In this document: piece after piece, positions 26,316-64,000 of the stretch
Numbering within the stretch: the first letter of the stretch is position 1
Layout of the letters: the number at the start of each line of letters is the position of its first letter
From: Candidatus Hadarchaeota archaeon
Lineage (GTDB): Archaea > Hadarchaeota > Hadarchaeia > Hadarchaeales > Hadarchaeaceae
Assembly: GCA_964514965.1 (NCBI GenBank)
Contig: CAZETV010000001.1
Coordinates: 889,239 to 953,238, forward strand
Reading direction: 5' to 3'
DNA length: 64,000 nucleotides
Program-made: the position numbers and the translations under genes
Notes under the pieces: generated by a model
What the model was told of the DNA's origin: nothing
What the model saw: the letters and a program-made list of their open reading frames with translations, nothing else
Database searches by the model: none

Positions 26316-27695
26316 TTACTCTTTTTTCTTTCGTCTTCGAATGATGACTTTTTCGGCATGGATTTTCGCGTTTTTAAGGATGATGGTAAAGCCGCCAGTC
26401 GTTGGTATTGCGATCTCCCCGGTCGATTCAGCAGGTACGGGCTCGTTGACCTCAGCTGGTGCAGCAACTTCTGGCGTGGCCTTCCAGCGCTCGGTGACTG
26501 GGTGTGTATGTGTCTCAAGGAACCCCTTTAAATCATCAATTGTTCCTACGTCTTTTTCGGTCGCGATTTTGTCCACAACCTCGGCAGGTATGAAATTCTT
26601 GACTCTCTCTTTTATCACCGCGGGCATCCAGACTATACGGTTCCATCCTCCGTCCACTTGGAGAAACTTGGGAGACCTCATGTACTCAATCGACACACCG
26701 TGGAAACCATCGACTTGCCGTCCCCCCGCAGTTGAATCAGCCATTGCCGAAAATGTCAATCCATTAACGGCCGATCCCCTGAAATCTCTGTGAATCAATC
26801 CAATCCCATCCACTTCAGGAATGTAGAACGCTGTCCCTTCAAAGCAGCCACATGATGTGTGAGGGTGATCAAATGCCGTGTATAACTGCACTCTGTCATA
26901 CTCCCCGAGCGTTTTTTCCTTCACTATTTTGTTAACACCTTCGAATTCGCCTGCAAACTCGTCGATGGTTTTTCCCTTTTTTATTTCAAAGATTGAACCC
27001 TTGGGATCAACTCGCGCGGCGGCCCTTCCATCGAACCAACTTATGGCACCGCAATTGGCGTATCTTTGTGGGGTTATTATGCAAACGTGAGTTGGAGCGA
27101 AGGATTGACAAAGTGTGCACCCGTAAAAAACCTCAACATCGCCGTCCTTCAATCCTCGAGCCCTAGCATCGCGGGCCTCGTAGATTTTGAGGGCCTCGGA
27201 GTGCATTTCCTGTACTTTCGAGGGGTCCGTGATGAAGGTGATTTGTATTTTTTCGATGATTGGCAATTCACTTCTGTATAACCTTTCCAAGACTTTTCCA
27301 ATCAATTGAAGAGTCAATCCTTTTTTGACTGACTTTTTGCTCACGCGGAACCAGATGTCATAACGCTGGTTTAGGTGCATGAACCCCTCGATGTAGTTGC
27401 AGAAATCGTGGATATGCCTCTCGAAGACTCCTTCCATCTCCTCATCGAGTTCATTGCCGGCAACTTCGATGTAGATTCCAAGTGGGACAGAACTCCCTTC
27501 CTTCAAATCCTTGAGTTCCGGGCCTATTACGGTGATTTTTCCGTCCTCAACATCATCCTTTACCCGCAAAAGTTCAAATTTATAATTTACTTTAGTTCCA
27601 CCGAACTCTACGTGCATGTCTGGCTTCCGGATTCTCTCTCCCTCGTATATCACTCCTACATCTACTGGGATGTCTGCAAACATGCCAGTTTTCAT
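26316..27695 (-). CDS. cdhC: CODH/ACS beta subunit (acetyl-CoA synthase, A-cluster)
   Basis: 459 aa with A-cluster cysteine region (CTLCQSF...C, HTSCGCFEG). Confidence 0.85.
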   Translation of the reverse strand: MKTGMFADIPVDVGVIYEGERIRKPDMHVEFGGTKVNYKFELLRVKDDVEDGKITVIGPELKDLKEGSSVPLGIYIEVAGNELDEEMEGVFERHIHDFCNYIEGFMHLNQRYDIWFRVSKKSVKKGLTLQLIGKVLERLYRSELPIIEKIQITFITDPSKVQEMHSEALKIYEARDARARGLKDGDVEVFYGCTLCQSFAPTHVCIITPQRYANCGAISWFDGRAAARVDPKGSIFEIKKGKTIDEFAGEFEGVNKIVKEKTLGEYDRVQLYTAFDHPHTSCGCFEGTAFYIPEVDGIGLIHRDFRGSAVNGLTFSAMADSTAGGRQVDGFHGVSIEYMRSPKFLQVDGGWNRIVWMPAVIKERVKNFIPAEVVDKIATEKDVGTIDDLKGFLETHTHPVTERWKATPEVAAPAEVNEPVPAESTGEIAIPTTGGFTIILKNAKIHAEKVIIRRRKKKE

Positions 27696-28228
27696 TTCCC
27701 TTCCACCTTTTGAGCAATTATTTCCAAATTTTCATGCCAATTTTTAAGCGAGAGATTTGGGAAAGACCAACTGCAATGTGGCTGATAAAATCTGTTTATG
27801 GAGATCGTCTTGAGGTTGGGAACAAAGGATTTGAGCCCAGATTCGATTACCCATTCCATATAATATGGGATTCCTAAGAGCAACGCGAGGTCGTGGGAAC
27901 TTCCTTCACCAGAAACGCTCCACTCCGGGTCGGTGAGTCTAGTACCTATATCCATCGCGGACATCCAGGCATCTGGCTGAAAATCCCTCTTAAGGAACTC
28001 CGCAACAGTTTGAGCAGTGGCAACTACAGGTATTTTCGCAGCTCTTGCGATGCGAATGACATAATCGATTGGCTTTTTATTCCCCAAATCTACTTCAGCA
28101 GCCTCATGCCCGACGATGAAAATCGGACGTTTGGCTTTCTTTATCATCGTGGAGGCAACTTCCGGATTTTTAATCACGAGGGCCTTTTTCGGACCAGGAA
28201 TTTCAGCTTTCTGCCAAGGCTCGGCCAT
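27692..28228 (-). CDS. cdhB: CODH/ACS epsilon subunit
   Basis: 178 aa protein between cdhA and cdhC, the conserved position and size of the epsilon subunit. Confidence 0.7.
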   Translation of the reverse strand: MAEPWQKAEIPGPKKALVIKNPEVASTMIKKAKRPIFIVGHEAAEVDLGNKKPIDYVIRIARAAKIPVVATAQTVAEFLKRDFQPDAWMSAMDIGTRLTDPEWSVSGEGSSHDLALLLGIPYYMEWVIESGLKSFVPNLKTISINRFYQPHCSWSFPNLSLKNWHENLEIIAQKVEGK

Positions 28229-32951: not shown

Positions 32952-33722
32952 ATGATGGCTAAAAGAAAAATCCTAAAAATCGACCTCAGAAAACGCAAAA
33001 AATCCGAAGAGGAGGATCTCCTAGCTGTTGACAAGCTTATTAACATCTTCGTTAACGGGGAGTATTTCGTCACCCTCATGGCAAGTCCAAGAAATATTCG
33101 GGAATTGGCGATCGGTCACTTGCTGGGGCAGGGCATCATTAGTACGCTGGAGGATATCGAGCATGTGAGCATAAGGGGAAAAAACGTCAACCTGAGGACA
33201 AAAGCTGAAATTCAACTTGGAGCCACCAAATTCCCGAAGGTAATCCCGACCGCTTGTGGTGCATCGGAGGACATTATTGAACTTCTAGGTAAATCGGGTG
33301 TACTGAAACTCAAGGTGAAATTTAGTGCAGAAAATATTGGGGGTGCGTTTAAATCACTTTACTCTGCGTCTAAGATTTTTAAAAAAAGCGGGGGCACCCA
33401 CGCAGCGGCTTTGTTCGCGTGGAATGGAAAAATGAAATTTTGCATAGAGGATGTCGGGAGGCATAACGCGGTAGACAAGGTCATCGGGAGAGGGCTGATT
33501 GAGGGCGTGAATTTTACAAGGAGCTTTATGATCTCGACGGGTAGGTTATCGGCGGATATGGTGATCAAGTGTGCGAGAGCCGGGATACCGCTCGCTGCAT
33601 CAAAAGCAGCCCCTCTTGAATCAGGCCTCCTAGCGGCTGAGATGAGCGGCTTGACGCTTGTCGGTTTCGTTAGGGGGAGCCGAATGAACGTGTACACGCG
33701 CCCTGAACGGGTGAAATTTTAG
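32952..33722 (+). CDS. fdhD: Formate dehydrogenase accessory sulfurtransferase FdhD
   Basis: 256 aa FdhD-like sequence (TACGASE...GGTHAAALF...GRHNAVDKVIG). Confidence 0.8.
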   Translation: MMAKRKILKIDLRKRKKSEEEDLLAVDKLINIFVNGEYFVTLMASPRNIRELAIGHLLGQGIISTLEDIEHVSIRGKNVNLRTKAEIQLGATKFPKVIPTACGASEDIIELLGKSGVLKLKVKFSAENIGGAFKSLYSASKIFKKSGGTHAAALFAWNGKMKFCIEDVGRHNAVDKVIGRGLIEGVNFTRSFMISTGRLSADMVIKCARAGIPLAASKAAPLESGLLAAEMSGLTLVGFVRGSRMNVYTRPERVKF

Positions 33723-39118: not shown

Positions 39119-39850
39119 CTAAGCCCTCAGAATTTTTTTCAGCCGCCGAACGAGTCTCTCGGATACTCTGCCATTTTTTCTGTCCCCACCCTCACAGACC
39201 ACTCCCCTAACCCCGATTACGTCTGGATTCAGCGACTTCAGCGTCTGTACTTCTTTAAGCCCTAACGAACCGGCGAGAGAAGCCCATAGACCGTATGAAT
39301 GTGAATTGTTAACGAAATTCTCCAAATCTTCTCTCCGAAGGAAATCTGTGAGGGGCCGGCCGTCCTTGATTGCCGTATCTATCATTGCAATGTCAGCTTC
39401 ACATTCGCCCGCTATTTCAGGTATGAGCAGGGGATTTATTGTTCCAGACCTCTCAAAGTCCCCATAAGTACATACAGCAACCTTTGCCGATCCATAAGTG
39501 CCTTTAACCGCCCTTACCACCTGCTTTACAAAGTATATGGCACTTTTCACATCTTTTGGACCTTTCAGTCCGACTTTTATTATATTAGCCCCCGCTTTAA
39601 GGGCACCAAACGCCGCTAGGGCAGCACTTCCCGGAAGGTCAGGGAAATCGCCAATGGCCGCGCTGAGAGGTATGTTCGCGGGTACGGATTGCCTCACGTT
39701 AGCTATGACCCATGGGAAGTTTGCACCGAGCGATCCCTCTTCAGGGTTCTTAATGTCGAGAATATCGGCTCCCCCTCTGATAGCGGCCAATGCCTCCTCG
39801 ATGTCTCTAGGGCTGACAAGAAGTAGGGTCAAGTTAGGTCCTCCAGGCAT
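39119..39850 (-). CDS. mfnB: DUF556/MfnB-type (5-formylfuran-3-yl)methyl phosphate synthase
   Basis: 243 aa class I aldolase-like TIM barrel with LLLVSPRDIEEALAAIRGGADILDIKNP N-terminus and catalytic Lys context (IIKVGLKG). Confidence 0.65.
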   Translation of the reverse strand: MPGGPNLTLLLVSPRDIEEALAAIRGGADILDIKNPEEGSLGANFPWVIANVRQSVPANIPLSAAIGDFPDLPGSAALAAFGALKAGANIIKVGLKGPKDVKSAIYFVKQVVRAVKGTYGSAKVAVCTYGDFERSGTINPLLIPEIAGECEADIAMIDTAIKDGRPLTDFLRREDLENFVNNSHSYGLWASLAGSLGLKEVQTLKSLNPDVIGVRGVVCEGGDRKNGRVSERLVRRLKKILRA

Positions 39851-49876: not shown

Positions 49877-50941
49877 ATGAAACATACGCAAACTTGTAGC
49901 GACGATGGAAAGGTAAAGTTGATGAATATACCATATGGGGAACTTAAAACGACCGTGGTCGGGAGCTTTCCCTTACAGCACTCTATAGAAAACATGCGTA
50001 GGACATTTTCAGATCAGATCGAAGCTGGGATAAATTTCCCATGTTATGGGCAACTTTTGGATATGAATTTAATGTTTCTAGAACCTTTGGCAAAAGAAAA
50101 ATGTGGAATCGATATAATTGCGGGGGAGGCGTGGATCACCGGTTTATTAGAGGTTCCTAAGAGGCCCATATCTCTCGAGTTCTTGGAACTAGCTCAAGAG
50201 TACCTCAAAAAGAACCCCTCCGAAGAGGTTGACGGGATTAAAGTCCCCATCACAGGCCCAATCACCTTATCATCCGCGACGAAGGTTTCTGAAAAACATC
50301 TTGCTATAGAACACCCAGATTTTATTCTAGATTTTTCCAATATCGTGGCTGAAATCGCGAAATGGTACGACAAAGCAGGGGCGGGGCTGATAATGATTGA
50401 TGAGCCTTCTTTGAGTTATGCCAAATGGTTTGGGACGGAGCCCGATGTTCTAATCGAAGCGATTAATAAACCCATGAAAGCGATAAAGAACGCCCTATCT
50501 TCGGTTCACGTATGTGGTGACATTTCCGCGGTCACGGACATCCTCATCCAATCGGAAGCTCCAATATTAGATCACAGCTTCAGTGACTTTCCAGCCAACT
50601 TAGGATTTTATTCCAGAGGCGTTTTAGAGAGAGCCGATAAGATGATAGGGTTTGGCTGTGTGAGTTCAACACCAGACCCACAGCTTCTGTTAGACATCAG
50701 CGCGGGAAAGGCTCAATGGACGGAAGCGGTAGAATCCGTGGATAAAATAGAAAAGTTGATTCTTGAGGGAGGGAAGAGGTTCGGACTTGAGAGATTAATT
50801 ATAGACCCAGATTGCGGGTTTGGCGGGATGAGAGAATATTTTAAAGACGACACTGGGCAGAGGATAGCAACTGGAAAGCTGAGAAATATGGTCGGGGCTG
50901 TAAGGGGTGCTAGGAAAAAATTGGGAATGCCCCATAGTTAG
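49877..50941 (+). CDS. metE: Cobalamin-independent methionine synthase (MetE C-terminal domain) family protein
   Basis: VVGSFP motif, IMIDEP, and zinc-ligand contexts HVCGD and DPDCGFG characteristic of the MetE catalytic domain; archaeal short form. Confidence 0.6.
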   Translation: MKHTQTCSDDGKVKLMNIPYGELKTTVVGSFPLQHSIENMRRTFSDQIEAGINFPCYGQLLDMNLMFLEPLAKEKCGIDIIAGEAWITGLLEVPKRPISLEFLELAQEYLKKNPSEEVDGIKVPITGPITLSSATKVSEKHLAIEHPDFILDFSNIVAEIAKWYDKAGAGLIMIDEPSLSYAKWFGTEPDVLIEAINKPMKAIKNALSSVHVCGDISAVTDILIQSEAPILDHSFSDFPANLGFYSRGVLERADKMIGFGCVSSTPDPQLLLDISAGKAQWTEAVESVDKIEKLILEGGKRFGLERLIIDPDCGFGGMREYFKDDTGQRIATGKLRNMVGAVRGARKKLGMPHS

Positions 50942-50968
50942 TGATTATTTTCAGATGAGTGTGATATT

Positions 50969-51922
50969 TTGAGAATTCACATCAAAACACCATCGCGGTT
51001 GCATTTTGGGATAATCGATCTCAGCAGAAGCTTAGGCCGCAGCTATGGTTCAATGGGTTTAGCGATAGAGGGGCGTGGGTATGAAATCCTTGCCGAGAAA
51101 GGCGAGGAGCTAGAGGTACTTGGGCCGGGGGAGGATGCAGAGCAAGCAAGAAAGATTGCCGAAAAAGTTACGCAAATTTACAAAATTCCACGTCAGGTCA
51201 AAATAAACATACTTGAGAACATCCCGATGCATGTAGGGCTGGGCTCCACGACCCAACTGACGCTGGCGGTGGCAACGGCTATCACGAAACTTTATGGTGT
51301 GAAGGCTTCATCCGTTGAGCTTGCGGAGAAAATGGGCAGGGGGAAAAATTCTGGTGTGGGGGCCTACGCTTTCATGAAGGGGGGTTTCATTGTTGGTGGA
51401 GGGATTAAGAGAAGAGGATTTCCGCCGATGATTTTCAGACACGATTTTCCTGAAGAATGGCGCTTCGTAATCGTTATACCGCAAATTGGGAGGGGACTCG
51501 ATGAAAAAACTGAAGAGGGGCTGTTCAAGCGAATAACAGCTTCTACTGATGTTGCCCGAAGAATTTGCCACTCACTCGTCATGAAAATGCTGCCCTCTAT
51601 TGTGGAACATGACGTAGAGAGTTTTGGACAGGTTTTGACTGAGGTTCAGAGGCTCGTTGGGGAAGCTTTTTCCCCCTACCAAGGAGGCGTGTTCGGGGGT
51701 CAGATAGTTTCTGATATCGTTAATCGGATGCTGGAGGAGGGGGCATATGGTGCTGGGCAGAGTTCTTGGGGTCCGACGGTTTATGGGTTGGTTGAGGATA
51801 ATGCCCAAGCGGAGGAACTAAAAGAAAAAATTTTGGAGTTCTTAAAGGGTAAAAGTTACAAAGCTGGCTTAATGGTGGTCAGACCAAACAATGAAGGAGC
51901 TAAGGTAGAAATCGAGGACTAA
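50969..51922 (+). CDS. mptG: Beta-ribofuranosylaminobenzene 5'-phosphate synthase (GHMP-kinase fold), methanopterin biosynthesis
   Basis: N-terminus PSRLHFGIIDL and GHMP motif (PMHVGLGSTTQL) typical of beta-RFAP synthase. Confidence 0.7.
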   Translation: MRIHIKTPSRLHFGIIDLSRSLGRSYGSMGLAIEGRGYEILAEKGEELEVLGPGEDAEQARKIAEKVTQIYKIPRQVKINILENIPMHVGLGSTTQLTLAVATAITKLYGVKASSVELAEKMGRGKNSGVGAYAFMKGGFIVGGGIKRRGFPPMIFRHDFPEEWRFVIVIPQIGRGLDEKTEEGLFKRITASTDVARRICHSLVMKMLPSIVEHDVESFGQVLTEVQRLVGEAFSPYQGGVFGGQIVSDIVNRMLEEGAYGAGQSSWGPTVYGLVEDNAQAEELKEKILEFLKGKSYKAGLMVVRPNNEGAKVEIED

Positions 51923-53063
51923 ATGGGATTTTCTCTTCCAACTTTTGTTTCACGCTTTTTCCTTTTGGATGATAAATATGGTCCAATGCTGTACCTTTTG
52001 AATTTTTGATGCCCATCCACTCGATGAGCTTGGCAAATTTGCTCCTTGTCAAACCATCAGCGACCATTGCGTACCCTTGAGCCGATTCTTTGACCCTTCT
52101 CGCCCCCTGAAGCCACCCGATTCTCCTCACTGGCGCGAATTTGGCGAGTCTCTCTAGCAGTTCATCCTTAACTCTTTCGATTCTCGTTAATCTACCTGAA
52201 AGCAGGATTTCTTTGGGATGGGGAACCGTGACCATCATTGAAGCGACGCCCTTTACTATATCCTCGATCATTGTCTCCCACGCCACTTCGCAGTGCTTAT
52301 CAGAATTTGCGCATCCAATCAGCTCTTCAGGGGAAAGCTTGCCAGACACGGAAATTCCACCACCCGTGAAAATATCCATTTTTTCCCATTTCCCGACTAG
52401 CTGTGTGAGTTCCGCGTCCATGCCGCCTGAAGTTAGAAATCCGATTCCCCCCATAGTTCCGCCGATTCCATCGACAATTTTTCCTTCGCTTATGCCAAGA
52501 ACTGCGTTATACCCAAAGCCCATCTCAACGAGGATGAAGGAGACCTCGGAGTATGGAATGTTTAGCTTTTGGGCCTGATCGTAAACTCCGAGGACGCCAA
52601 TGCACATCTTGTCGACTGTCCCCATGTCAAGCTTGTTGATTTTTCTGTGCGCGGGCACTGTGGGAAGCTCAATCACGCCTGGGATGTAACAAACCGGCCA
52701 ACCCCTGCGCTTCATTTCCATTGCTGTTTCGGTCATAGCTGAATAGACCATTATTCCGATGTCACCTTTTGTTAAAGCGGCCTCCAAGTCCTCTTTCTTC
52801 AGGAGGAGTATGTAGGTAAGGTACCAGTCCCTAAGGGTCTGGATGTTCAAATCTCTCAGATACGTTAATTCAACGCCGTATCCAGAGGGACCAGCTATCA
52901 AATCTAGCGGCATCGCTTTTTCGGTAGCTTCGATTAACAGCTTTGGGTTTTTGGCAACCTCAGGAGTTTCTAAAATTTCCTCAAAGTACACTTCTCCATT
53001 TTCCAGCCCGCATAAATCAAAACTCTTTGTACCGGGGTCTATACCCAAAACCCTGACTTTCAT
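51900..53063 (-). CDS. ASKHA-superfamily protein (DUF1464-like), unknown function
   Basis: N-terminal phosphate-1 motif (VLGIDPGTKSFD) of the actin/sugar-kinase fold; last gene of the H4MPT biosynthesis operon. Confidence 0.4.
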   Translation of the reverse strand: MKVRVLGIDPGTKSFDLCGLENGEVYFEEILETPEVAKNPKLLIEATEKAMPLDLIAGPSGYGVELTYLRDLNIQTLRDWYLTYILLLKKEDLEAALTKGDIGIMVYSAMTETAMEMKRRGWPVCYIPGVIELPTVPAHRKINKLDMGTVDKMCIGVLGVYDQAQKLNIPYSEVSFILVEMGFGYNAVLGISEGKIVDGIGGTMGGIGFLTSGGMDAELTQLVGKWEKMDIFTGGGISVSGKLSPEELIGCANSDKHCEVAWETMIEDIVKGVASMMVTVPHPKEILLSGRLTRIERVKDELLERLAKFAPVRRIGWLQGARRVKESAQGYAMVADGLTRSKFAKLIEWMGIKNSKGTALDHIYHPKGKSVKQKLEEKIPFSPRFLP

Positions 53064-53110
53064 CGATTCATCCTTCCGTGAGGTCTATTCCATTTTCCAT
53101 TGTGTGCGAT

Positions 53111-54676
53111 TTAGAAAAGCTCTTTCTCCTGCAGATAGCTCCTGCCAGTTCTCAGAGCAATCTCGGCTTTCTGGAGTTCGCGCCCCAAGTATGCGGCATG
53201 TTCGATATCACTAATCAATCCTTTTTCTATAATTTCATAGCATATCTCCTCGGCGGTTTTCCCTCTTATCACGATTTTTGGGTCCCTTCCAGCGTACATG
53301 ACGGCGACTATCTCATATTTGTCAACGAAAATTTTGAAGAAACCTGTTTGATCGAGCTTAAACTTTCTCTTTGCCGATGCGTGGATTGCACTTGCTACCT
53401 TCTCGACATTTTTATCGTATAGGTCGAAAACCTTTCTCTTTTCCTTTAGGATTAGCAGGTCCAATCCTAAATCCTTGGGGACGGTGGACCTTATCTTCGA
53501 TATCGTCGTCATCTCCCTCGCCTTTCTGACCTCTGCAACATTTCCCTGCGTTTTATCGCTCGCTTCCACGGTGAGCACGAAACTTGTCCCTAGTTCGCTT
53601 GCGGCTCCAACTAACAAAGCTGTCATACCCACTGAATCTGCATCGTAAAGCTCAACCACGTTTCCTATCCCCATCAAGATCGGAAGTTCGGGATCAAGTC
53701 CCCTCAACTCGTAAAAGGACAACAGGGAGGCAACGAATCCACGGTTAACGGGTTCTAGGATGGGGTCGGCTATCACCCGTTTGTATCCGAGTTTCTCCGA
53801 TTTTTTCACCAGTTTCATCAAATACTCTACCTTTTCTCTTGGTGCACGCGGGTAATAGCCGCGCTTCGTGTTTAATGGAACGAGGACAGCGGGCACTTCA
53901 AGATTTTGAAATTCATTGATGGTGGCGCCGTTTATGCTCAGGATCAAATCAATTTCGCACTCGATGGCCTTTTTGATCTCAGTTTTGTTTAAAGTGTCAA
54001 TGCTTATCGGGACATCGAAATTATCTTTTAGTGTGGACACAAGCCTCGGAACTTCATCGACCATCTCCCTTCCCGCGAGCATTCCGATATCGATGATTTC
54101 AGCTCCGCTTTCGAAGTATCGTTTGGCGACTTCAATGATTTTCTCGTCAGAAAAGAGTGGCGCATCAGCTATTTCTCCGATGACCCTCGGCGGAAAATCT
54201 CTGCCAGCGGGAACCGCCGTCTTGCCCTTCCCAATCAAGAAATTGTGAGGTTCAGAAAGCCTTTTTTTAGCAGCTTCCTCGGCGATTTTAAGTTGTTTTT
54301 TTATAGAGGCTTTAATCTCAGAGTTTAGGAGCTCGCATGCTGGTTTCTCTTTCGAAAGCTCTATTTTATCTAAATTGTCCAGCACAATGGGGATGTCTGC
54401 AGCGTACTTTGGCCCCTTAAAAGTGGGTATCCCAAGTTTATTTTCTATCATCTTCAAGTCAAATCTAACTAGCCCTGGAACGAGGAGCATCGAGAAGTTG
54501 TTCAAGTTGATTTTTTTTAATTCATTTATCAAAAGTTCTGGAGTCATGAATGATGCAACGGAGAGTGGCAGGACTTTTACATCAGAAGGTATAGTGCTTT
54601 CGACGGCATACCTTCGAACTAACTTTTCAGCGAGTTCAGCCGTTACCAGCAGTATTCTCTTGCCCATCGGCACCAC
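53111..54676 (-). CDS. Dihydropteroate-synthase-like protein with C-terminal extension (methanopterin biosynthesis)
   Basis: 521 aa; pterin-binding TIM-barrel segments (EIIDIGMLAG, ISIDT) resembling the DHPS homologues that condense dihydropterin-PP with beta-RFAP in methanogens. Confidence 0.6.
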   Translation of the reverse strand: MVPMGKRILLVTAELAEKLVRRYAVESTIPSDVKVLPLSVASFMTPELLINELKKINLNNFSMLLVPGLVRFDLKMIENKLGIPTFKGPKYAADIPIVLDNLDKIELSKEKPACELLNSEIKASIKKQLKIAEEAAKKRLSEPHNFLIGKGKTAVPAGRDFPPRVIGEIADAPLFSDEKIIEVAKRYFESGAEIIDIGMLAGREMVDEVPRLVSTLKDNFDVPISIDTLNKTEIKKAIECEIDLILSINGATINEFQNLEVPAVLVPLNTKRGYYPRAPREKVEYLMKLVKKSEKLGYKRVIADPILEPVNRGFVASLLSFYELRGLDPELPILMGIGNVVELYDADSVGMTALLVGAASELGTSFVLTVEASDKTQGNVAEVRKAREMTTISKIRSTVPKDLGLDLLILKEKRKVFDLYDKNVEKVASAIHASAKRKFKLDQTGFFKIFVDKYEIVAVMYAGRDPKIVIRGKTAEEICYEIIEKGLISDIEHAAYLGRELQKAEIALRTGRSYLQEKELF

Positions 54677-55414
54677 TTAGAGAACTTCATTTAGAGTTTT
54701 TGGAATTTTTTTCGGACTATCGATTACAACATAGTTTTTATTTTTCTGCATTTTCTTGACATTTTCGATATCAATTTTTCTGAGAGTAACTTTGACTTCT
54801 TGGCCGAAGGTAACCGCGCCATAAGGGCACTTTTTGAGGCAAATGCCGCACCCTTCACACTTGGTGAGGTCTATTTTTGAATGTCCGTCAGAGAGAACTA
54901 TCGCTTCAAATAGGCAAAGGTCGATTATCGAACAAGCTTCGCAATTCAGACAAATTTCTCGGTTTATCAGGTACGGAAGTCTCGTTCTTTTCTTAATCCC
55001 AATTTGATCGCTCGGAACAATTATTATCGGTACTTTTCCCTTCTCGGCCTGTGCTATGGCGTTTGTAACTAAGGTGTCGGTGATTCCAGCAATAGTTTTT
55101 GCAACCGTGTTTGCACTCGCCGGTGAAATGATCAGAGCATCGTAGGTTCCTCTTAATAAACGTCCTGCAAGCGGGAAGTCGGGGCCCTGCTGGACTTCAA
55201 GGATCACTTCTCGGTAATAATTACCCGGGCAAATCTTGCTCAGTTTTTGCCAAAGCCCATAAACGCGAACGACCCTTTCTCCAGCTGAGGAAACGAAGCA
55301 TGATACCACATGCTCTCTCGCTAATTTCTCCATAACGTCGAATGTCTCTTGAAGAAAATGTCCGGCTCCTGTTATGCCCCACCCTATTTTTACCAATTCA
55401 CTACCCCATCTCAT
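54677..55414 (-). CDS. dmrX: Flavoprotein with two 4Fe-4S ferredoxin motifs, DmrX-like dihydromethanopterin reductase
   Basis: N-terminal flavoprotein fold (IGWGITGAGH, IISPASANT) plus C-terminal CLNCEAC...CEGCGICLKKCP motifs. Confidence 0.55.
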   Translation of the reverse strand: MRWGSELVKIGWGITGAGHFLQETFDVMEKLAREHVVSCFVSSAGERVVRVYGLWQKLSKICPGNYYREVILEVQQGPDFPLAGRLLRGTYDALIISPASANTVAKTIAGITDTLVTNAIAQAEKGKVPIIIVPSDQIGIKKRTRLPYLINREICLNCEACSIIDLCLFEAIVLSDGHSKIDLTKCEGCGICLKKCPYGAVTFGQEVKVTLRKIDIENVKKMQKNKNYVVIDSPKKIPKTLNEVL

Positions 55415-56087
55415 TTTTGAAGAGACCCTTAATTTTTATCATCAGGTTTAGCTCCACTGAGTGAGGAGCGATTCGCCGACATTTTTCCAAATATTCACTA
55501 ATCTCAAGGAATTTCTTTTTTGCCACGTCATATTTACCATTTTTTAACGCTTCCTTTACCCGAGTTGCCAGTATTGCGGATTCGGTCACGAAGAACTCGG
55601 ACCTTTTGAACGGATAGATGGACGGAGTAATTAACTCAATATTTTTCACCCTTGCAGTAATGTGGGCCACTTCCGAACTGCCGATCTCATCCGAAATCTT
55701 TGCTCGTTCTACCTTTTCAACCTCAATCTCCACATGGGCATCGCTTTTCGCCAGTTTGGGCGCGTTCACGTTTCTCGATTTTTCGAATTCTATTGCGATT
55801 TTACCGAAGCTGGTGAATTCTTTTAGAGCAAGAGATACCAGGAGTTCCACATCTCTTACGATGTTTATAACCGCGGCCTTCGAATGGAGGAGATTCTGGA
55901 AAGTTCTGGTGTTAGTGAAAATTCTTAGAAACAACTTTGATTGATTTATTGTCTTGATACCAACAACCGATGCGTGCGGTCTTTTATCAGGTGAGAAGGT
56001 AGTCAAAATGATTTCCGCTGGGGATTGCTCAGATAGCCCAGTTTCTGCTAATGAGGACATAACAGGCATCTTCATTTCAACATGCAT
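55401..56087 (-). CDS. DUF447-like protein associated with methanopterin biosynthesis
   Basis: 228 aa protein between dmrX-like and CitG-like genes; the same gene set (DUF447 plus CitG-like) accompanies H4MPT biosynthesis in methylotrophs. Confidence 0.45.
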   Translation of the reverse strand: MHVEMKMPVMSSLAETGLSEQSPAEIILTTFSPDKRPHASVVGIKTINQSKLFLRIFTNTRTFQNLLHSKAAVINIVRDVELLVSLALKEFTSFGKIAIEFEKSRNVNAPKLAKSDAHVEIEVEKVERAKISDEIGSSEVAHITARVKNIELITPSIYPFKRSEFFVTESAILATRVKEALKNGKYDVAKKKFLEISEYLEKCRRIAPHSVELNLMIKIKGLFKNEMG

Positions 56088-56120
56088 ATGTTTTTCTCAC
56101 ACATAAAACTCTCAAAGATT

Positions 56121-57104
56121 TCAAGGTATCAACCCATCGAGGATTGCCAGCATTAGGGAGGATGCGGTGAGGTCAGCCGTTGTTCCTGGATTTATTCTTT
56201 TTTTTCTCAGCTCCTCATCAAATTTTTTGATAAGGGTTCTCCCCGCACTTGTTAACATTCCTCCTTTCTTGATGATCGACCTTGCCTCCCCCGATACGTT
56301 TTCCGAGATTTCTTTGCCGTGTATCCTTTGCACGAAGGTATCGGGATATTTTGAGAGTATCTCGAGAAAGCTCTGGACGGTCGTCGTGTTCATGGTTTTA
56401 GTCTTTTCGTACAATTTTTTCACGAGTGGATAGCCGAATTCAAAAGTTATCTCCATGCCGGTGACCCATTCTCTGGATATGTTATCCCACTTTGAGCTGA
56501 TATTCATTATCTCATAGAGCGAGATATGCTCTTTCTTTATCCTATCCTTTGATGTCTCATTCTTTACATCGAGTTCATCCACTCCCTCAAGGCCTGCCGG
56601 GTCCGCAATCAAGATCGCATCGTAGACATTCAGCGCGTCCTCAGGAGTCGTGGATTTCAAGACATTTGAGAGGTTTGCCCTAAGCTTTTTCATTTCAATT
56701 TTACCTTCCCTGCCCAGCGTTATTCCTGCTGCTGCTGCAAGCGGTGTTAAGAGCAGCACTACGCCCAGATTTGTGTTTCCGTCTCTTTGCCATTTCATCG
56801 TGTTTTCAATTGCACTTTTTATTGCTCTTCCAACTCCGATATGAGTCGTTTTGACCCCTCTCTTTCCAACCCTGAACCCTCTCTTGGCCACATCGAGCAA
56901 AATGGGGCCTATCGCTATGGAGCTTGCTATGAAATGCTCAAACGTCATTTCCTTTATATCCGCAGTTCTGTGAACATTTCCCGGCTTTGGGTACCCGCTA
57001 ACCTCTAGCGCTGACGCGAGTTGTGCGGCTCTTGCTATATCTTCGATATCCATCAAGATTACCTGCGCGGCCTTGCTTATTTTTCGTGTTGTATCATTTA
57101 ACAA
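56121..57104 (-). CDS. Triphosphoribosyl-dephospho-CoA synthase (CitG)-like protein, methanopterin biosynthesis associated
   Basis: CitG-family motif GYPKPGNVHR and 327 aa length. Confidence 0.6.
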   Translation of the reverse strand: MLNDTTRKISKAAQVILMDIEDIARAAQLASALEVSGYPKPGNVHRTADIKEMTFEHFIASSIAIGPILLDVAKRGFRVGKRGVKTTHIGVGRAIKSAIENTMKWQRDGNTNLGVVLLLTPLAAAAGITLGREGKIEMKKLRANLSNVLKSTTPEDALNVYDAILIADPAGLEGVDELDVKNETSKDRIKKEHISLYEIMNISSKWDNISREWVTGMEITFEFGYPLVKKLYEKTKTMNTTTVQSFLEILSKYPDTFVQRIHGKEISENVSGEARSIIKKGGMLTSAGRTLIKKFDEELRKKRINPGTTADLTASSLMLAILDGLIP

Positions 57105-57107
57105 CGT

Positions 57108-57578
57108 TTATGAGAGATGTTTGAGGTTACCAGACTTGGCTCGTTTTTTCTTCACGAGTTTTCCGAGCCCACGTTTTTGGAGCATCGCTTCGATCTCTCG
57201 CTCGGACGGTTGCGGGAGTAAGGTAGGAGCAGGGGTTCGGGACAGTTTCATCCTGAACGCTCCAATTATTTTGCTTGCAGCGAGCGTATACGCAAGCACT
57301 ACCGCGCAGAAGTAGAGCGGTTCAAGCGCGAGCGCCATGGATGTGAAGATTGCGGGTCCGACGATTGCGACCCCGACCGCTAGGGCAATCACGATCGTTT
57401 TGACCTTTCGACGGCGATAAATTACCGTGAGCTTGCCGCCCAGACCTAAGAGCAGCGCCTCCAGCCCAAAAGCCAAAGAACCGAAGAGGAGAATTATATA
57501 GAGGATTTCGATGGTGCTCAAGCAGGTCACCAATCGAGCTAGGTTGACAAACGATTTAAAATGTGAGCGGCGCCGCAT
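57108..57578 (-). CDS. Small membrane protein (start uncertain)
   Basis: Hydrophobic helices (ILYIILLFGSLAFGLEALLLGL, IVIALAVGVAIVGPAIF); longest ORF overlaps the nth start, so the true start is probably internal (TTG at 57521 or ATG at 57338). Confidence 0.35.
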   Translation of the reverse strand: MRRRSHFKSFVNLARLVTCLSTIEILYIILLFGSLAFGLEALLLGLGGKLTVIYRRRKVKTIVIALAVGVAIVGPAIFTSMALALEPLYFCAVVLAYTLAASKIIGAFRMKLSRTPAPTLLPQPSEREIEAMLQKRGLGKLVKKKRAKSGNLKHLS

Positions 57579-58227
57579 GGTGGCAATTTTGGGACGTTTG
57601 GGTGCTGAGTTCGAGCTCTGGCGCCGTTACACTAATGACCCGTTTCTCCTATTGGTTGGGACGGTGCTCTCGCAGAACACCAACTGGCGCAACACCCGTG
57701 CAGCCTATAACCGGCTCATCGCTAAGTTTCGAACACCCGAACAGCTCGCGAGGGCGAGAATAAGGGATATTCAACAGTTAATCAAACCTGCTGGCCTGTA
57801 CAGGATGAAATCTAAACACCTGAAGGAGCTAGCGCGCATAGTGCTCGAGCGATATCACGGGGACCTAAGCACTTTGCTCCGAAAGCCGCCCGAAAAGGCG
57901 CGCCAAGAGTTGCTCTCTTTGCCCGGAATCGGCTACAAGACCGCTGATGTGCTGCTGGTCTTCGGGGCAGGGCGTGACGTGCTGCCGGTTGACACCCACA
58001 TTTTCAGGATCTCAAAACGTCTTGGGTTTGCTTCACCTAAGGCCAACTACGAAAAAGTAAGACTCAAACTTGAGGAACTCACACCTAGCGGCCGTCGCGG
58101 CGAGGCGCATGTGCTGTTGATTCAACACGGTCGGCGTTACTGTCTCGCTCGCAACCCGCTTTGCGATGAATGCCCGATCAAAGACCTCTGCCCAATTGGA
58201 ATTAGTCGTGTAAAGCACGCGCCATAG
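57511..58227 (+). CDS. nth: Endonuclease III (DNA glycosylase/AP lyase)
   Basis: HhH-GPD fold (LPGIGYKTADVLL) and C-terminal 4Fe-4S motif (CLARNPLCDECPIKDLC). Confidence 0.8.
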   Translation: MVLKQVTNRARLTNDLKCERRRMVAILGRLGAEFELWRRYTNDPFLLLVGTVLSQNTNWRNTRAAYNRLIAKFRTPEQLARARIRDIQQLIKPAGLYRMKSKHLKELARIVLERYHGDLSTLLRKPPEKARQELLSLPGIGYKTADVLLVFGAGRDVLPVDTHIFRISKRLGFASPKANYEKVRLKLEELTPSGRRGEAHVLLIQHGRRYCLARNPLCDECPIKDLCPIGISRVKHAP

Positions 58228-59609: not shown

Positions 59610-61805
59610 TTACTCCATAAAGTCTTCAGGCTTGGGCGGCTCCAGTTTTAATCCTTTGCGTTTTCGCGTGTCCCGAACGACTTGTTCTTGAAGCTCCTTT
59701 GGCAGTTGTTCGAATTTTTCGAATTCTGTTCCCCAGATTGCCCTCCCCTCGGTCTCCGAACGCATCTCTGCCGCGAGTCCGAAGGAATTTGCTACTGGCA
59801 GCGAAGCTTTGATGATCGCGATGTCTTCTTCTGACTCCATGGTGGTGATTCGGCCCCGGCGCCCTTGGATGACCTTGGTGGCGCCACCCATGAACTCCTG
59901 CGGCACCCGTACCTCGAGTTTGAGCAAGGGTTCGAGCACCACTGGATTGGCGAGAAGGACCCCAGCCTGAATTGGGCGCCTGACCGCCGGGATGATCTGC
60001 GCTGGCCCGCGGTGCACCGAGTCTTCGTGCAACGATGCGTCGGTGATGAGTAACTTGAGCCTGCGTATGGGCTCACGCATCAGCGGTCCCTCTTCGACTA
60101 CCTCTTTGAAAGCCTCGATAGCATAGTCTTCGACTTCGCGCATGTACTGCACGCCTTTTGTAGCATCAACGAAAATGTTTGAACCGATTATCGAGAGTAC
60201 ATTCCGAGCGGTGTGGGTCTCCCAGCCCAGCTCCCGGAGCACGTTTGCGCGCTCCTTTTTGTCTTGTTTTTCAGCAACTTTGCCCTCCTCGATTGCTTTT
60301 ATAACCTCCGGCTTGAGGGGTTCGGCTGTAATAAAAAAGCGATTGTGTTTGTTTGGGGACTTTCCCTCGACATGTTCGGCCTTACCAAGAATCGTCTCGC
60401 GATAGACGACTATGGGTTCAGATGATTTCACTTCCAGTCCGGCTTCCTTAAGTTTGTATTCGACTATCTCGAGATGAACTTCACCCATCCCCGAAACTAG
60501 GTACTCCCCAGTCTCCTCGTTGATTTTTATCTTTATGTTTGGGTCCTCGCGGGAAATTTTCTTGAGTTCGTTGATGAGCTTTGGCAGATCTTGGAAGTTC
60601 TTCGGCTCGACAGCAACGGTAACTACAGGTTCACTGATGTAGCGGAGCTCCTCGAAGCCCTTACCCTCCGCCCCAACTTCTACTAGCGTCTCTCCCACGT
60701 AGGCCTCTTTCATCCCGATGAGCGCGGCGATGTTGCCAGCGGGCACCTTGTCGACCATCTCGCGCTTAGGCCCTATGTAAATACCGACCTGCTGGATGCG
60801 CGCGTCCTGCCCAGCACTCACCAGTTTGACTGTTTTGCCCTTTTCAAGTGTGCCGGAGAAGACTCGGCCCGTCGAGATGACTCCCGCCTGCTCGTCGACG
60901 ATGACATCGGTGACTATCATGCAAATTTTGCCCTCAGGATTGCAGGAGAACATGTCCTTACCGAGTTCACTCTCCACGTCTCCCTTCCATATAATTGGGA
61001 TTCGGTTCGCCTGTGCCTGTTTTGGGTTGGGAAGGTGGCGAATAACCATATCGAGCACGACCTCGTAAAGTGGGCTTTTCTTCGCCAGCTCCGCTATGTT
61101 GTTCGTCTGGTAAGCGTTGATGATGTCCTTGAAGCTGATGTTTCTGGCCTTCATCTGGGGAATCGAGAGGGCCCACTTCTCTTTCGCCGACCCAAAGGCG
61201 ACTGAACCCTTCTCAACACTTACCCGCCATTTTTCGGCGATGTCAGGAGAAGCGTACCTCCCGATTAGCTGGTTGAACCTAGTTATGAGTTTGACGAACC
61301 GTGCTTGCATCCCATCGGGGGTTAGTTTGAGCTCGTCAATGAGGCGATCCACCTTGTTGATGAATAGTATGGGTCTCGCTCGCTCGCGCAGCGCTTGGCG
61401 GAGCACGGTTTCGGTCTGTGGCATGACGCCCTCGACTGCATCCACAACTACAATCACACCATCGATTGCGCGCAGGGCTCGCGTGACATCACCGCTGAAG
61501 TCGACATGACCCGGGGTGTCAAGCAAGTTGATGAGGTGCTCCTTCCCCCCGAAAGCATGCGCCAGACTCACTGCCGCAGTCTGCACGGTTATCCCGCGCT
61601 GCTGTTCGATTTCAAGATAATCTGTGAAAAGTTGCTCACCCGCCAGCTCGAAACTTATGATTCCCGAAGCGGCGACTAAGCTGTCTGTGAGCGTCGTCTT
61701 GCCGTGATCGACGTGGGCAACTATACCTATGTTTCGGACATGTTCTGGCGTCCACATTATCTTGGCCACGTCGCCTAAGTGTTTGTAACGTCGCATATCC
61801 ACCAC
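59610..61805 (-). CDS. fusA: Translation elongation factor 2 (aEF-2)
   Basis: 731 aa; GTPase motifs AHVDHGKTT, DTPGHVDF, NKVD, and diphthamide-region GRRG...H context (RGPAQIIPAVRR). Confidence 0.9.
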   Translation of the reverse strand: MVDMRRYKHLGDVAKIMWTPEHVRNIGIVAHVDHGKTTLTDSLVAASGIISFELAGEQLFTDYLEIEQQRGITVQTAAVSLAHAFGGKEHLINLLDTPGHVDFSGDVTRALRAIDGVIVVVDAVEGVMPQTETVLRQALRERARPILFINKVDRLIDELKLTPDGMQARFVKLITRFNQLIGRYASPDIAEKWRVSVEKGSVAFGSAKEKWALSIPQMKARNISFKDIINAYQTNNIAELAKKSPLYEVVLDMVIRHLPNPKQAQANRIPIIWKGDVESELGKDMFSCNPEGKICMIVTDVIVDEQAGVISTGRVFSGTLEKGKTVKLVSAGQDARIQQVGIYIGPKREMVDKVPAGNIAALIGMKEAYVGETLVEVGAEGKGFEELRYISEPVVTVAVEPKNFQDLPKLINELKKISREDPNIKIKINEETGEYLVSGMGEVHLEIVEYKLKEAGLEVKSSEPIVVYRETILGKAEHVEGKSPNKHNRFFITAEPLKPEVIKAIEEGKVAEKQDKKERANVLRELGWETHTARNVLSIIGSNIFVDATKGVQYMREVEDYAIEAFKEVVEEGPLMREPIRRLKLLITDASLHEDSVHRGPAQIIPAVRRPIQAGVLLANPVVLEPLLKLEVRVPQEFMGGATKVIQGRRGRITTMESEEDIAIIKASLPVANSFGLAAEMRSETEGRAIWGTEFEKFEQLPKELQEQVVRDTRKRKGLKLEPPKPEDFME

Positions 61806-63036: not shown

Positions 63037-63111
63037 TCTTGATTGTTCTCTTTTTTCATATAAGTTTGCCGTCGAAAAATTAAAGCCATTCGGTAGTGAA
63101 GTTTGTTAGCT

Positions 63112-63218
63112 GCGGGGGTAGCCAAGTCAGGTCAAAGGTCTAACGACCGGCTGAAGGCGTACGGTTCAGGGCCGTATCCCGTAGGGGTTCGGGGGTTCGA
63201 ATCCCCTCCCCCGCACCA
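63112..63218 (+). tRNA. tRNA-Leu (anticodon CAG) with a 19-nt insertion between the D-arm and the anticodon stem (probable non-canonical intron); CCA encoded
   Basis: Acceptor stem GCGGGGG/CCCCCGC, discriminator A and CCA; D-arm GCC-AAGTCAGGTCAAA-GGT; perfect 5-bp anticodon stem TACGG/CCGTA (63160..63164 with 63172..63176) enclosing loop TTCAGGG (anticodon CAG at 63167..63169); long variable arm CCCGTAGGGGTTC; T-arm GGGGG-TTCGAAT-CCCCT. Nineteen extra nt (about 63140..63158) lie between the D-stem and the anticodon stem. Confidence 0.7.
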
Positions 63219-63307
63219 AATGCGCAATGAGTAAGAAGGTCTATGGAGGTATTTGCGGGCTTTATAGACAAAAATAAGGCAGGAAAACAGGAATTTACAG
63301 TTGCTGC

Positions 63308-63448
63308 CTATTTTCCGAGGAAATTTCGTATTTGCTCTCTCAACCATTCAGCCTTTGAATTATAACCAGATGCCTTCAGTTTTGCTTCAAAAGCTTCAAG
63401 AATCTCCTTTTCAATTTGGGCTTTGATTTCAATAATATCCTGCATCAT
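63308..63448 (-). CDS. Putative ribbon-helix-helix (CopG/antitoxin-like) mini-protein, 46 aa
   Basis: Translated by hand: MMQDIIEIKAQIEKEILEAFEAKLKASGYNSKAEWLREQIRNFLGK; the GYNSKAEWLREQIRNFL segment resembles the RHH helix-2 of NikR and CopG (compare GYTSRSEAIRDALRDFL in the nikR product here). Below the ORF-track length cutoff. Confidence 0.3.
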   Translation of the reverse strand: MMQDIIEIKAQIEKEILEAFEAKLKASGYNSKAEWLREQIRNFLGK

Positions 63449-63501
63449 GATCACTAACGAACAATAAGTTTATAAATATAAGAATATTCTAATATGTTAA
63501 T

Positions 63502-63807
63502 ATGAAAGAGATATATAAAATCCATGCTGAGATGTGTAAAGTTTTTTCAAATCCAACTAGATTGGAAATTCTTAATCTATTAAGAGACAATGAACTGACT
63601 GTTTCTGAATTGACTAATAAGTCAGAATTTACTCAAGTTAACATTTCTCAGCATTTGTCAATAATGAAAAATAAAGGAATAGTCTCATCAAGACGAAAAG
63701 GGAAAAACGTTTACTACAAACTTACTAATCCCAAGATAATCAAAGCATTTGATATAATTAAAGAAGTGTTGGCTGAAAGGTTGAAGAAGAATGGAACGCT
63801 TGTTTAA
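63502..63807 (+). CDS. arsR: ArsR/SmtB family transcriptional regulator
   Basis: 101 aa winged-helix regulator (FSNPTRLEILNLLRDNELTVSELTNKSEFTQVNISQHLSIMKNKGIV). Confidence 0.75.
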   Translation: MKEIYKIHAEMCKVFSNPTRLEILNLLRDNELTVSELTNKSEFTQVNISQHLSIMKNKGIVSSRRKGKNVYYKLTNPKIIKAFDIIKEVLAERLKKNGTLV

Positions 63808-63825
63808 GTGCTATGAGGTGGAAAA

Positions 63826-64000
63826 ATGAGAAAAACTTTCACAATTTTGATTTTTAGTATGTTGTTGTTAAGTGTAAGTCTAGTGTCTGCACATGAATAC
63901 AATTTTAATGAGACAAAGCAACTTATAGATTCAGGAATAAATTGCGATAAACTCACAGACGAGCAGCTTGAAGCCATTGGAGATTATTATATGGAACAAA
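63826..64000 (+). CDS. Secreted or membrane-anchored hypothetical protein (5' part; continues beyond window)
   Basis: ATG preceded by GAGGTG ribosome-binding site; N-terminal signal peptide MRKTFTILIFSMLLLSVSLVSA. Confidence 0.4.
   Translation, partial: MRKTFTILIFSMLLLSVSLVSAHEYNFNETKQLIDSGINCDKLTDEQLEAIGDYYMEQ

Follow-up and report, generated by a model that had tools for sequence, protein, structure and literature searches.

A Hadarchaeota tRNA-Leu(CAG) gene with a 19-nt non-canonical, probably protein-spliced intron in the D-loop

We find that positions 63112..63218 (plus strand) of the window, i.e., the whole 64,000-nt stretch of Candidatus Hadarchaeota archaeon DNA analyzed here, constitute a gene for tRNA-Leu(CAG) whose D-arm contains an insert of 19 nt and whose CCA end is encoded. 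The insert forms a splice motif with the neighboring exon, the motif is conserved and covaries among relatives, and removal of the insert leaves a canonical tRNA. We therefore hold, with high confidence, that the locus is a Hadarchaeota tRNA-Leu(CAG) gene interrupted by a protein-spliced intron of the bulge-helix-bulge (BHB) type between positions 21 and 22 of the D-loop.

The gene is 107 nt long in its unspliced form and 88 nt long when the 19 nt are removed. With permissive filters, the Rfam tRNA model RF00005 matches 63112..63215 over its full length (model positions 1-71) with 43.9 bits against a gathering threshold of 29 (E = 4.7e-6 for the whole window and 1.7e-8 locally), and this tRNA is the sole Rfam match across the 64-kb window under those filters. 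The alignment leaves 24 extra or unaligned nucleotides in the D-loop, keeps the anticodon loop UUCAGGG intact, and contains a long variable arm. In addition, ARAGORN reads the 19-nt-deleted sequence as an 88-nt tRNA-Leu(CAG), and over 100 archaeal tRNA-Leu genes match the exons. The parts of the gene, all on the plus strand, are as follows (basis in brackets).

63112-63118 and 63208-63214, plus: acceptor stem GCGGGGG/CCCCCGC (sequence, Rfam alignment)
directly after the acceptor 5' strand, plus: U8 A9 (sequence, Rfam alignment)
63121-63123 and 63156-63158, plus: D-stem GCC/GGC (sequence, Rfam alignment)
63112..63135, plus: 5' exon, 24 nt, through D-loop A13..A21 (Rfam alignment, BHB enumeration)
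63136..63154, plus: 19-nt non-canonical intron AGGUCUAACGACCGGCUGA at tRNA position 21/22 (deletion scan, BHB enumeration)
63155..63218, plus: 3' exon, 64 nt, starting at A22 (Rfam alignment, ARAGORN on the spliced product)
between the D-stem 3' strand and the anticodon arm, plus: G26 (Rfam alignment)
63160-63176, plus: anticodon arm UACGG/CCGUA with loop UUCAGGG, anticodon CAG at 63167-63169 (sequence, Rfam alignment)
63177-63190, plus: variable arm, 14 nt, UCCCGUAGGGGUUC (sequence, Rfam alignment)
63191-63207, plus: T-arm GGGGG-UUCGAAU-CCCCU (sequence, Rfam alignment)
63215, plus: discriminator A73 (sequence, Rfam alignment)
63216-63218, plus: encoded CCA (sequence)

Written out with slashes around the intron, the layout is GCGGGGG-UA-GCC-AAGUCAGGUCAA / AGGUCUAACGACCGGCUGA / A-GGC-G-UACGG-UUCAGGG-CCGUA-UCCCGUAGGGGUUC-GGGGG-UUCGAAU-CCCCU-CCCCCGC-A-CCA. 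The anticodon CAG, the 14-nt variable arm, and A73 are those of a class II tRNA-Leu, a class that is also defined by the archaeal Leu-type D-loop AAGUCAGG. The initial annotation, made from the letters of the window, had recognized a tRNA-Leu(CAG) with 19 nt left over outside position 37/38. Every element that it listed is present at 63112..63218 by sequence and by the Rfam alignment; the 19-nt excess is supported both by the Leu(CAG) call that ARAGORN gives after the deletion and by the extra nucleotides that Rfam places in the D-loop; and the covariance-model fold, with UUCAGGG uninterrupted, confirms that the excess lies elsewhere than in the anticodon loop.

Upstream of the gene, the alignment contains an A/T-rich box, GAAAAATTAAAGCC, at 63074..63087 (plus strand), i.e., 25-38 nt 5' of the tRNA start. 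It is kept in all close orthologs, and related A/T-rich boxes (containing GGATAAAG) occur in the more distant relatives L084 and L070. Judging from the usual geometry of archaeal promoters, this box is likely a BRE/TATA promoter element.

Standard searches miss this gene. ARAGORN with default settings returned nothing on the whole window, and Rfam at gathering thresholds with default filters gave no match on the whole window. The latter miss is due to the speed filters and not to the score, given that 43.9 bits exceed the gathering threshold of 29. Both misses were thus false negatives, caused by the insert and by the speed filters. It follows that intron-disrupted tRNAs can escape speed-filtered searches, and that a Hadarchaeota genome annotated by default finders (ARAGORN, standard-filter Rfam) would seem to lack tRNA-Leu(CAG). 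The archaeal mode of tRNAscan-SE 2.0, by comparison, searches for non-canonical introns by default (PMC8450103).

With the -i option, ARAGORN does report a gene here, but reads it as tRNA-Asp(AUC) and assigns 29 nt to a canonical intron within the anticodon loop. In that model, the anticodon stem is mismatched and the anticodon, AUC, is an unused one; the perfect UACGG/CCGUA stem, A73, and the variable arm of the Leu type are all disregarded, while the Rfam covariance model and all orthologs favor Leu(CAG). Since ARAGORN places introns in the anticodon loop only, the Asp(AUC) call is an artefact, and we give it practically no chance of being correct. The insert also differs from two other intron classes. 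A canonical intron would lie between 37 and 38, where the anticodon loop is uninterrupted. Self-splicing group I and group II introns require a catalytic core that runs to hundreds of nucleotides, and the insert is only 19 nt long and has no Rfam match besides tRNA.

The exact boundaries of the insert cannot be set by ARAGORN because it tolerates many D-arm deletions: in the deletion scan, about 200 different deletions of 15-30 nt were accepted as Leu(CAG). Moreover, a direct repeat, AAGG, brackets the intron (63135..63138 and 63154..63157), so the product is identical for five 19-nt excisions, those that begin at 63135 through 63139. We therefore enumerated helix-bulge-helix motifs in two polarities in 104 intron-bearing archaeal tRNA-Leu genes from public genomes. 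In the adopted polarity, a 4-bp central helix (H) is followed by a 3-nt bulge on each strand, and the cut falls after the second nucleotide of each bulge. This arrangement gives a perfect 4-bp H together with a canonical spliced product in 80 of the 104 genes and reproduces the canonical 37/38 introns of the set (e.g., H = CUCA/UGAG with bulges AG|A and CC|A, the bar marking the cut). [quoted passage not shown] The mirror polarity, with the bulge 5' of each H strand, accounts for only 23 of the 104 genes and offers no motif for the 19-nt excision; it was rejected. In the adopted polarity, the window contains the following elements, all on the plus strand.

63130-63133, plus: exon strand of helix H, GGUC (G18 G19 U20 C20a) (BHB enumeration)
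63134-63136, plus: 5' splice-site bulge AA|A, predicted cut 63135/63136 (cleavage rule validated on canonical introns)
63137-63148, plus: intron hairpin h', GGUC-UAAC-GACC (BHB enumeration, orthologs)
63149-63152, plus: intron strand of helix H, H' = GGCU (pairs with GGUC as G.U, G-C, U.G, C-G)
63153-63155, plus: 3' splice-site bulge GA|A, predicted cut 63154/63155 (BHB enumeration, orthologs)

Helix H thus has 4 bp (two G-C and two G.U), and the inner helix also has 4 bp. The 5' bulge is bounded by H and the 4-bp hairpin, and the 3' bulge lies between H and the D-stem. Opposite the 3' bulge are six D-loop nucleotides (63124-63129), which makes the motif a relaxed HBh' instead of a strict hBHBh': it has H, one well-formed bulge, and h', stands at a position other than 37/38, and gives a canonical product on excision, with the D-arm GCC-AAGUCAGGUCAAA-GGC. 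The relaxed bulge-helix-bulge that the initial annotation had anticipated was hence found, in the form of H, two 3-nt bulges, and a hairpin, with the relaxation at the 3' site.

This splice motif singles out 63136..63154 among the sequence-equivalent excisions, and it places the intron between A21 and A22, where the D-loop borders the 3' strand of the D-stem. The AAGG repeat itself follows in part from what the motif needs, since both bulges end in A and are then followed by GG. The initial annotation had set the insert at about 63140..63158, in the interval between the D-stem and the anticodon stem; the motif moves it approximately 4 nt further 5' and into the D-loop. An intron at 63140..63158 (about 25/26), which would give a D-stem GCC/GGU, is compatible with ARAGORN, which accepts the 19-nt deletion starting at 63140 as tRNA-Leu(CAG). 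However, the junctions of that excision have neither a flanking 4-bp helix nor 3-nt bulges (H would be AAAG against GAAG, which do not pair), its product would carry U25, and thus a G10-U25 pair in the D-stem, in place of the C25 of other tRNA-Leu genes in the set, and the motif conserved in the orthologs indicates 63136..63154. This placement is accordingly very unlikely.

The arrangement at 63136..63154 is rare in randomized sequence: when the insert was shuffled, an in-register 4-bp H together with an inner helix of at least 3 bp arose in just 0.13% of trials. In the local segment comprising H, the bulge, the hairpin, and H', the proposed structure is the minimum free energy (MFE) structure in 5 of 6 sequence variants; the energies are modest, and the local fold energies were not significantly lower than those of shuffled sequences. 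The MFE fold of the full-length precursor favors a competing pairing, UCAG/CUGA. We rejected this helix, as it is not conserved, being broken in L084, and its use as H would require a 24-nt excision that either removes G18 G19 or destroys the D-stem. A further register, that of the relative L070 (H = UCAA/CUGA with a 26-nt 5' exon), can form only three of its four pairs in the window, and the L084 change weakens it; it was rejected as well.

To follow the insert across relatives, we used two scans. The genome-collection scan looked for tRNA-Leu genes with extra nucleotides and required an insert. The metagenome scan, which was smaller, looked for these exon sequences with 0-30 nt allowed between them; it found seven more loci, all with an insert, and no intron-less copy or paralog with these exons, a 0-nt gap being allowed. 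Given that the genome scan required an insert, it is the smaller metagenome scan that excludes intron-less Hadarchaeota orthologs. Altogether, 13 orthologous loci were recovered, all insert-bearing and sharing a common EF-2/DUF1512 synteny, and the six from the genome collection are Hadarchaeota/Hadesarchaea metagenome-assembled genomes (MAGs). The insert lies at 21/22 in 12 of these loci, in six sequence versions, and 2 nt further 3' in the more distant L070. The identical gene, including the intron, is present in the Hadesarchaea/Hadarchaeota MAGs L030 and L069, and variants occur in the Hadarchaeota MAGs L020, L084, and L085. The EF-2 proteins of close relatives are 93-95% identical in amino acid sequence, with 84% for L084. 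This sharing of the exact gene and intron with Hadarchaeota MAGs assigns the window to Hadarchaeota and upholds the taxonomic value that had been ascribed to the insert.

The exons and the insert evolve very differently. The 5' exon is identical in 13/13 orthologous loci, and variable columns amount to 10/19 in the intron against 1/88 in the exons (Fisher p = 2.6e-8). The sole exon change, found in L084, is a G to A in the T-stem that turns a G.U pair into an A-U pair. These observations bear on two alternatives. The first is that an insertion inactivated a tRNA-Leu gene and left a pseudogene in decay, as the rejection of the gene by default tRNA finders might indicate. Such a history is highly improbable: the exons are identical among loci whose flanks differ by 10-27%, the single substitution converts G.U into A-U, the promoter-like box upstream is conserved, and the metagenome scan contains no intron-less paralog of these exons. 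The second is that the 19 nt are retained, so that the mature tRNA would have an enlarged D-loop or an extra mini-arm, in line with the above-threshold score that the Rfam model gives while treating the insert as extra D-loop sequence. We see only a slight chance for retention. The insert sequesters G18 G19, which are required for the contact between the D-loop and the T-loop; it evolves approximately 50 times faster than the exons, yet preserves a helix-bulge-helix in the exact splice register; and the length of same-site inserts varies between 12 and 21 nt in other lineages, which fits excised spacers and not a structural arm.

What is preserved within the fast-evolving insert is precisely the splice motif. 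Among the six variants, H' reads GGCU, GACU, or GGCC, each of which pairs with GGUC, and the changes are G.U to G-C and U.G to U-A. The hairpin GGUC-UAAC-GACC is replaced in orthologs by GGCA-GUU-UGCC, GGCG-GUU-UGCC, or GGC-CAUUU-GCC, with two pairs changed on both sides (U-A to C-G and C-G to A-U). The bulges AA|A and GA|A are invariant in 6/6 Hadarchaeota variants. Since MAFFT set the 1-nt length difference inside the hairpin stem, pairs were instead counted by a script and with fixed-length pseudo-sequences, which covered the D-stem, H, the bulges, and the inner-helix edges of 23 distinct tRNA-Leu genes with D-loop introns. In these 23 genes, 90.5% of motif cells are paired (90.2% for helix H), against 21-43% when the partner strand is slid by 1-3 columns, and the covariation score is 0.395 against 0.03-0.12 for the slid strands. 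None of 500 shuffles reached the observed percentage of pairing or the covariation score, and all four inner-helix pairs (4/4) changed on both sides, so that compensatory changes are present. The insert is not a chance arrangement. The suggestion that it is a non-canonical archaeal intron therefore holds well: the genome is archaeal, the motif has the validated polarity, the D-arm of the product is canonical, and the motif is kept in orthologs.

With these elements in place, we infer the following path from gene to mature tRNA. Transcription would probably proceed from the conserved A/T-rich box at -38..-25. In the precursor, G18 G19 U20 C20a would pair with the intron GGCU to form the 4-bp central helix, followed on the 5' side by the AA|A bulge and the hairpin GGUC-UAAC-GACC, and accompanied on the 3' side by the GA|A bulge beside the D-stem. 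The splicing endonuclease EndA is predicted to cleave each bulge behind its second nucleotide, at 63135|63136 and 63154|63155, and an RtcB-type ligase would then join the exons, freeing G18 G19 and restoring the D-arm GCC-AAGUCAGGUCAAA-GGC. G18 and G19 are needed for the D-loop/T-loop tertiary contact. An EndA of strict specificity might cut the relaxed 3' site, with its six nucleotides opposite the bulge, poorly. No EndA gene was found among 20 mid-size open reading frames of the window, so the enzyme type of the host is taken from the literature. Hadesarchaea YNP_N21 has been described as having numerous disrupted tRNA genes and an EndA of the alpha4 type that carries an L3 loop (PMC5829648).

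The closest known counterpart is the D-loop intron at 20b/21 of the Methanopyrus kandleri pre-tRNA-Glu(UUC), a relaxed HBh' (Kaneta et al. 2018, PMC5829648). Both are non-canonical D-loop introns of the protein-spliced type in nearly the same place (the positions differ by at most one nucleotide), both are HBh' motifs with a good bulge beside the intron hairpin and a disrupted outer side, and both hosts stand outside the classical intron-rich Crenarchaeota. In contrast to the window, the M. kandleri gene encodes tRNA-Glu and not tRNA-Leu and also has a canonical intron, and its intron has in vitro and RNA-seq support, whereas that of the window is known here from sequence. The enzymes differ too: that of M. 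kandleri is an (alpha-beta)2 EndA lacking a specificity loop, and for Hadesarchaea the alpha4 form with the L3 loop is reported. In vitro, a comparable D-loop HBh' intron was cleaved inefficiently by the enzymes of M. kandleri and A. fulgidus (PMC5829648).

A second counterpart is the D-loop BHB intron of the Aeropyrum pernix pre-tRNA-Thr2(UGU), which is cleaved in vitro (Hirata et al. 2011, PMC3241643), without an extra factor and more slowly than at 37/38 (PMC3241643). Here too, EndA must excise an intron from the D-loop. However, the A. pernix intron forms a canonical (strict) BHB, whereas that of the window is relaxed at the 3' site, and A. pernix is a crenarchaeon with an (alpha-beta)2 EndA that carries the Crenarchaea-specific loop. 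More generally, non-canonical archaeal tRNA introns are known at 20/21, 22/23, 25/26, 29/30, and other positions (Marck & Grosjean 2003; Sugahara et al. 2008; reviewed in PMC4090602). Those of Thermoproteales, Thaumarchaeota, and other lineages, which BHB searches and tRNAscan-SE 2.0 in archaeal mode detect, belong to the same class, i.e., short BHB or HBh' introns outside 37/38, but the classical examples include neither Hadarchaeota (kingdom Methanobacteriati) nor a Leu-CAG intron at 21/22. The initial annotation had described such introns as known mainly from some archaeal lineages; the non-canonical class is correct, and the case is less exotic than implied, heavy disruption of tRNA genes in Hadesarchaea having already been published (PMC5829648).

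D-loop introns are thus already known in archaea, and the intron of the window is a well-supported but ordinary example, which leaves the current understanding of tRNA splicing unchanged. Its value lies in the comparative validation of a relaxed HBh' intron from a lineage whose endonuclease is reported to be of the alpha4 type with an L3 insertion. The intron lends support to the published view that the substrate breadth of EndA is set by inserted loops and not by subunit architecture.

The same position is used in other archaea. Bathyarchaeia tRNA-Leu(CAA) genes (L006, L010, L011, L013, L029, L051, L059, L068, L077, L078, L081, L082, and L096) have 12-21-nt introns at the same insertion point, with a 24-nt 5' exon, the H strand GGUC, and bulges AA|N and NN|A. 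They differ from the window in isoacceptor (CAA and not CAG) and in phylum. The tRNA-Leu(CAG) genes of Bathyarchaeia (e.g., L005, L008, L024, and L076) have their intron at about 29/30 with H = GCGC/GCGU, and the tRNA-Leu(CAA) genes of Hadarchaeota (L042 and L043) have a canonical intron of 13-14 nt. Owing to these differences in isoacceptor and intron position, common descent with the Bathyarchaeia introns is not established.

Two further loci show a shifted intron. In the more distant Hadesarchaeon AUK037 (L070, 7292-7365, minus strand), tRNA-Leu(CAG) adjoins DUF1512, so the locus is orthologous; its intron, at about 23/24, has H = UCAA/UUGA and a different sequence, AGGCGUCUCGAAAACGCCUUGAAA. 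A very similar intron, AGGCGUUUAGUACGCCUUGGAA, occupies the same place as that of L070 in an Asgard archaeon of the Hodarchaeaceae (L073, 1498-1569, plus strand). This pair suggests intron sliding and/or sharing across phyla. One may speculate that the 21/22 position of the tRNA-Leu D-loop is an old or recurrently re-used slot shared across phyla through sliding and/or through intron transfer from one tRNA gene or lineage to another, with alpha4-type processing in Hadarchaeota; we consider this broader proposal unlikely, if conceivable. Alpha4-type endonucleases were once thought to be strictly limited to the canonical BHB. If the slot were indeed re-used and processed by the alpha4 type, Hadarchaeota would be a natural test case for the broadening of EndA specificity by L3.

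Eight other tRNA-Leu genes of the set (L002, L012, L014, L016, L022, L036, L061, and L106), from Nitrososphaerota, Aigarchaeota, Bathyarchaeia, and Asgard archaea, were not resolved by the removal of a single intron and appear to contain two. L108 (Patescibacteria) was discarded as a chance match to the search pattern that is not a tRNA-Leu.

The surroundings of the gene are in keeping with its host. The following genes of the window were identified.

1186-1941: TrmI/GCD14 tRNA m1A methyltransferase
27692-28228: CODH/ACS epsilon subunit
32952-33722: FdhD
39119-39850: 4-HFC-P synthase (methanofuran biosynthesis)
about 50000-57600: methanopterin-biosynthesis-like cluster (CitG-like, DUF447, flavoprotein, pterin-binding, GHMP kinase)
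59610-61796: archaeal elongation factor aEF-2

This gene content fits the C1 and CO metabolism of Hadarchaeota. The aEF-2 gene stands next to the tRNA (TIGR00490, E = 6.8e-301), an identical EF-2 protein is encoded on the metagenome contig Logan SRR14802574, and the EF-2/DUF1512/tRNA arrangement is conserved in Hadarchaeota relatives.

On the other side of the tRNA, the nucleotide homology with every Hadarchaeota relative ends exactly at the last base of the gene (CCA, 63218). No integrase and no att-like repeat of at least 12 nt was found in the available 2.5 kb. The sequence 3' of the tRNA in the window (63219..64000) and in L001 (1..2490) encodes ArsR (63502-63807), a 170-aa open reading frame, a tRNA-Thr_ED protein, a methyltransferase, and DsrE, and these genes are absent 3' of the tRNA in the relatives. 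The break in homology at 63218 may be the trace of an old breakpoint at the tRNA, left by integration or recombination.
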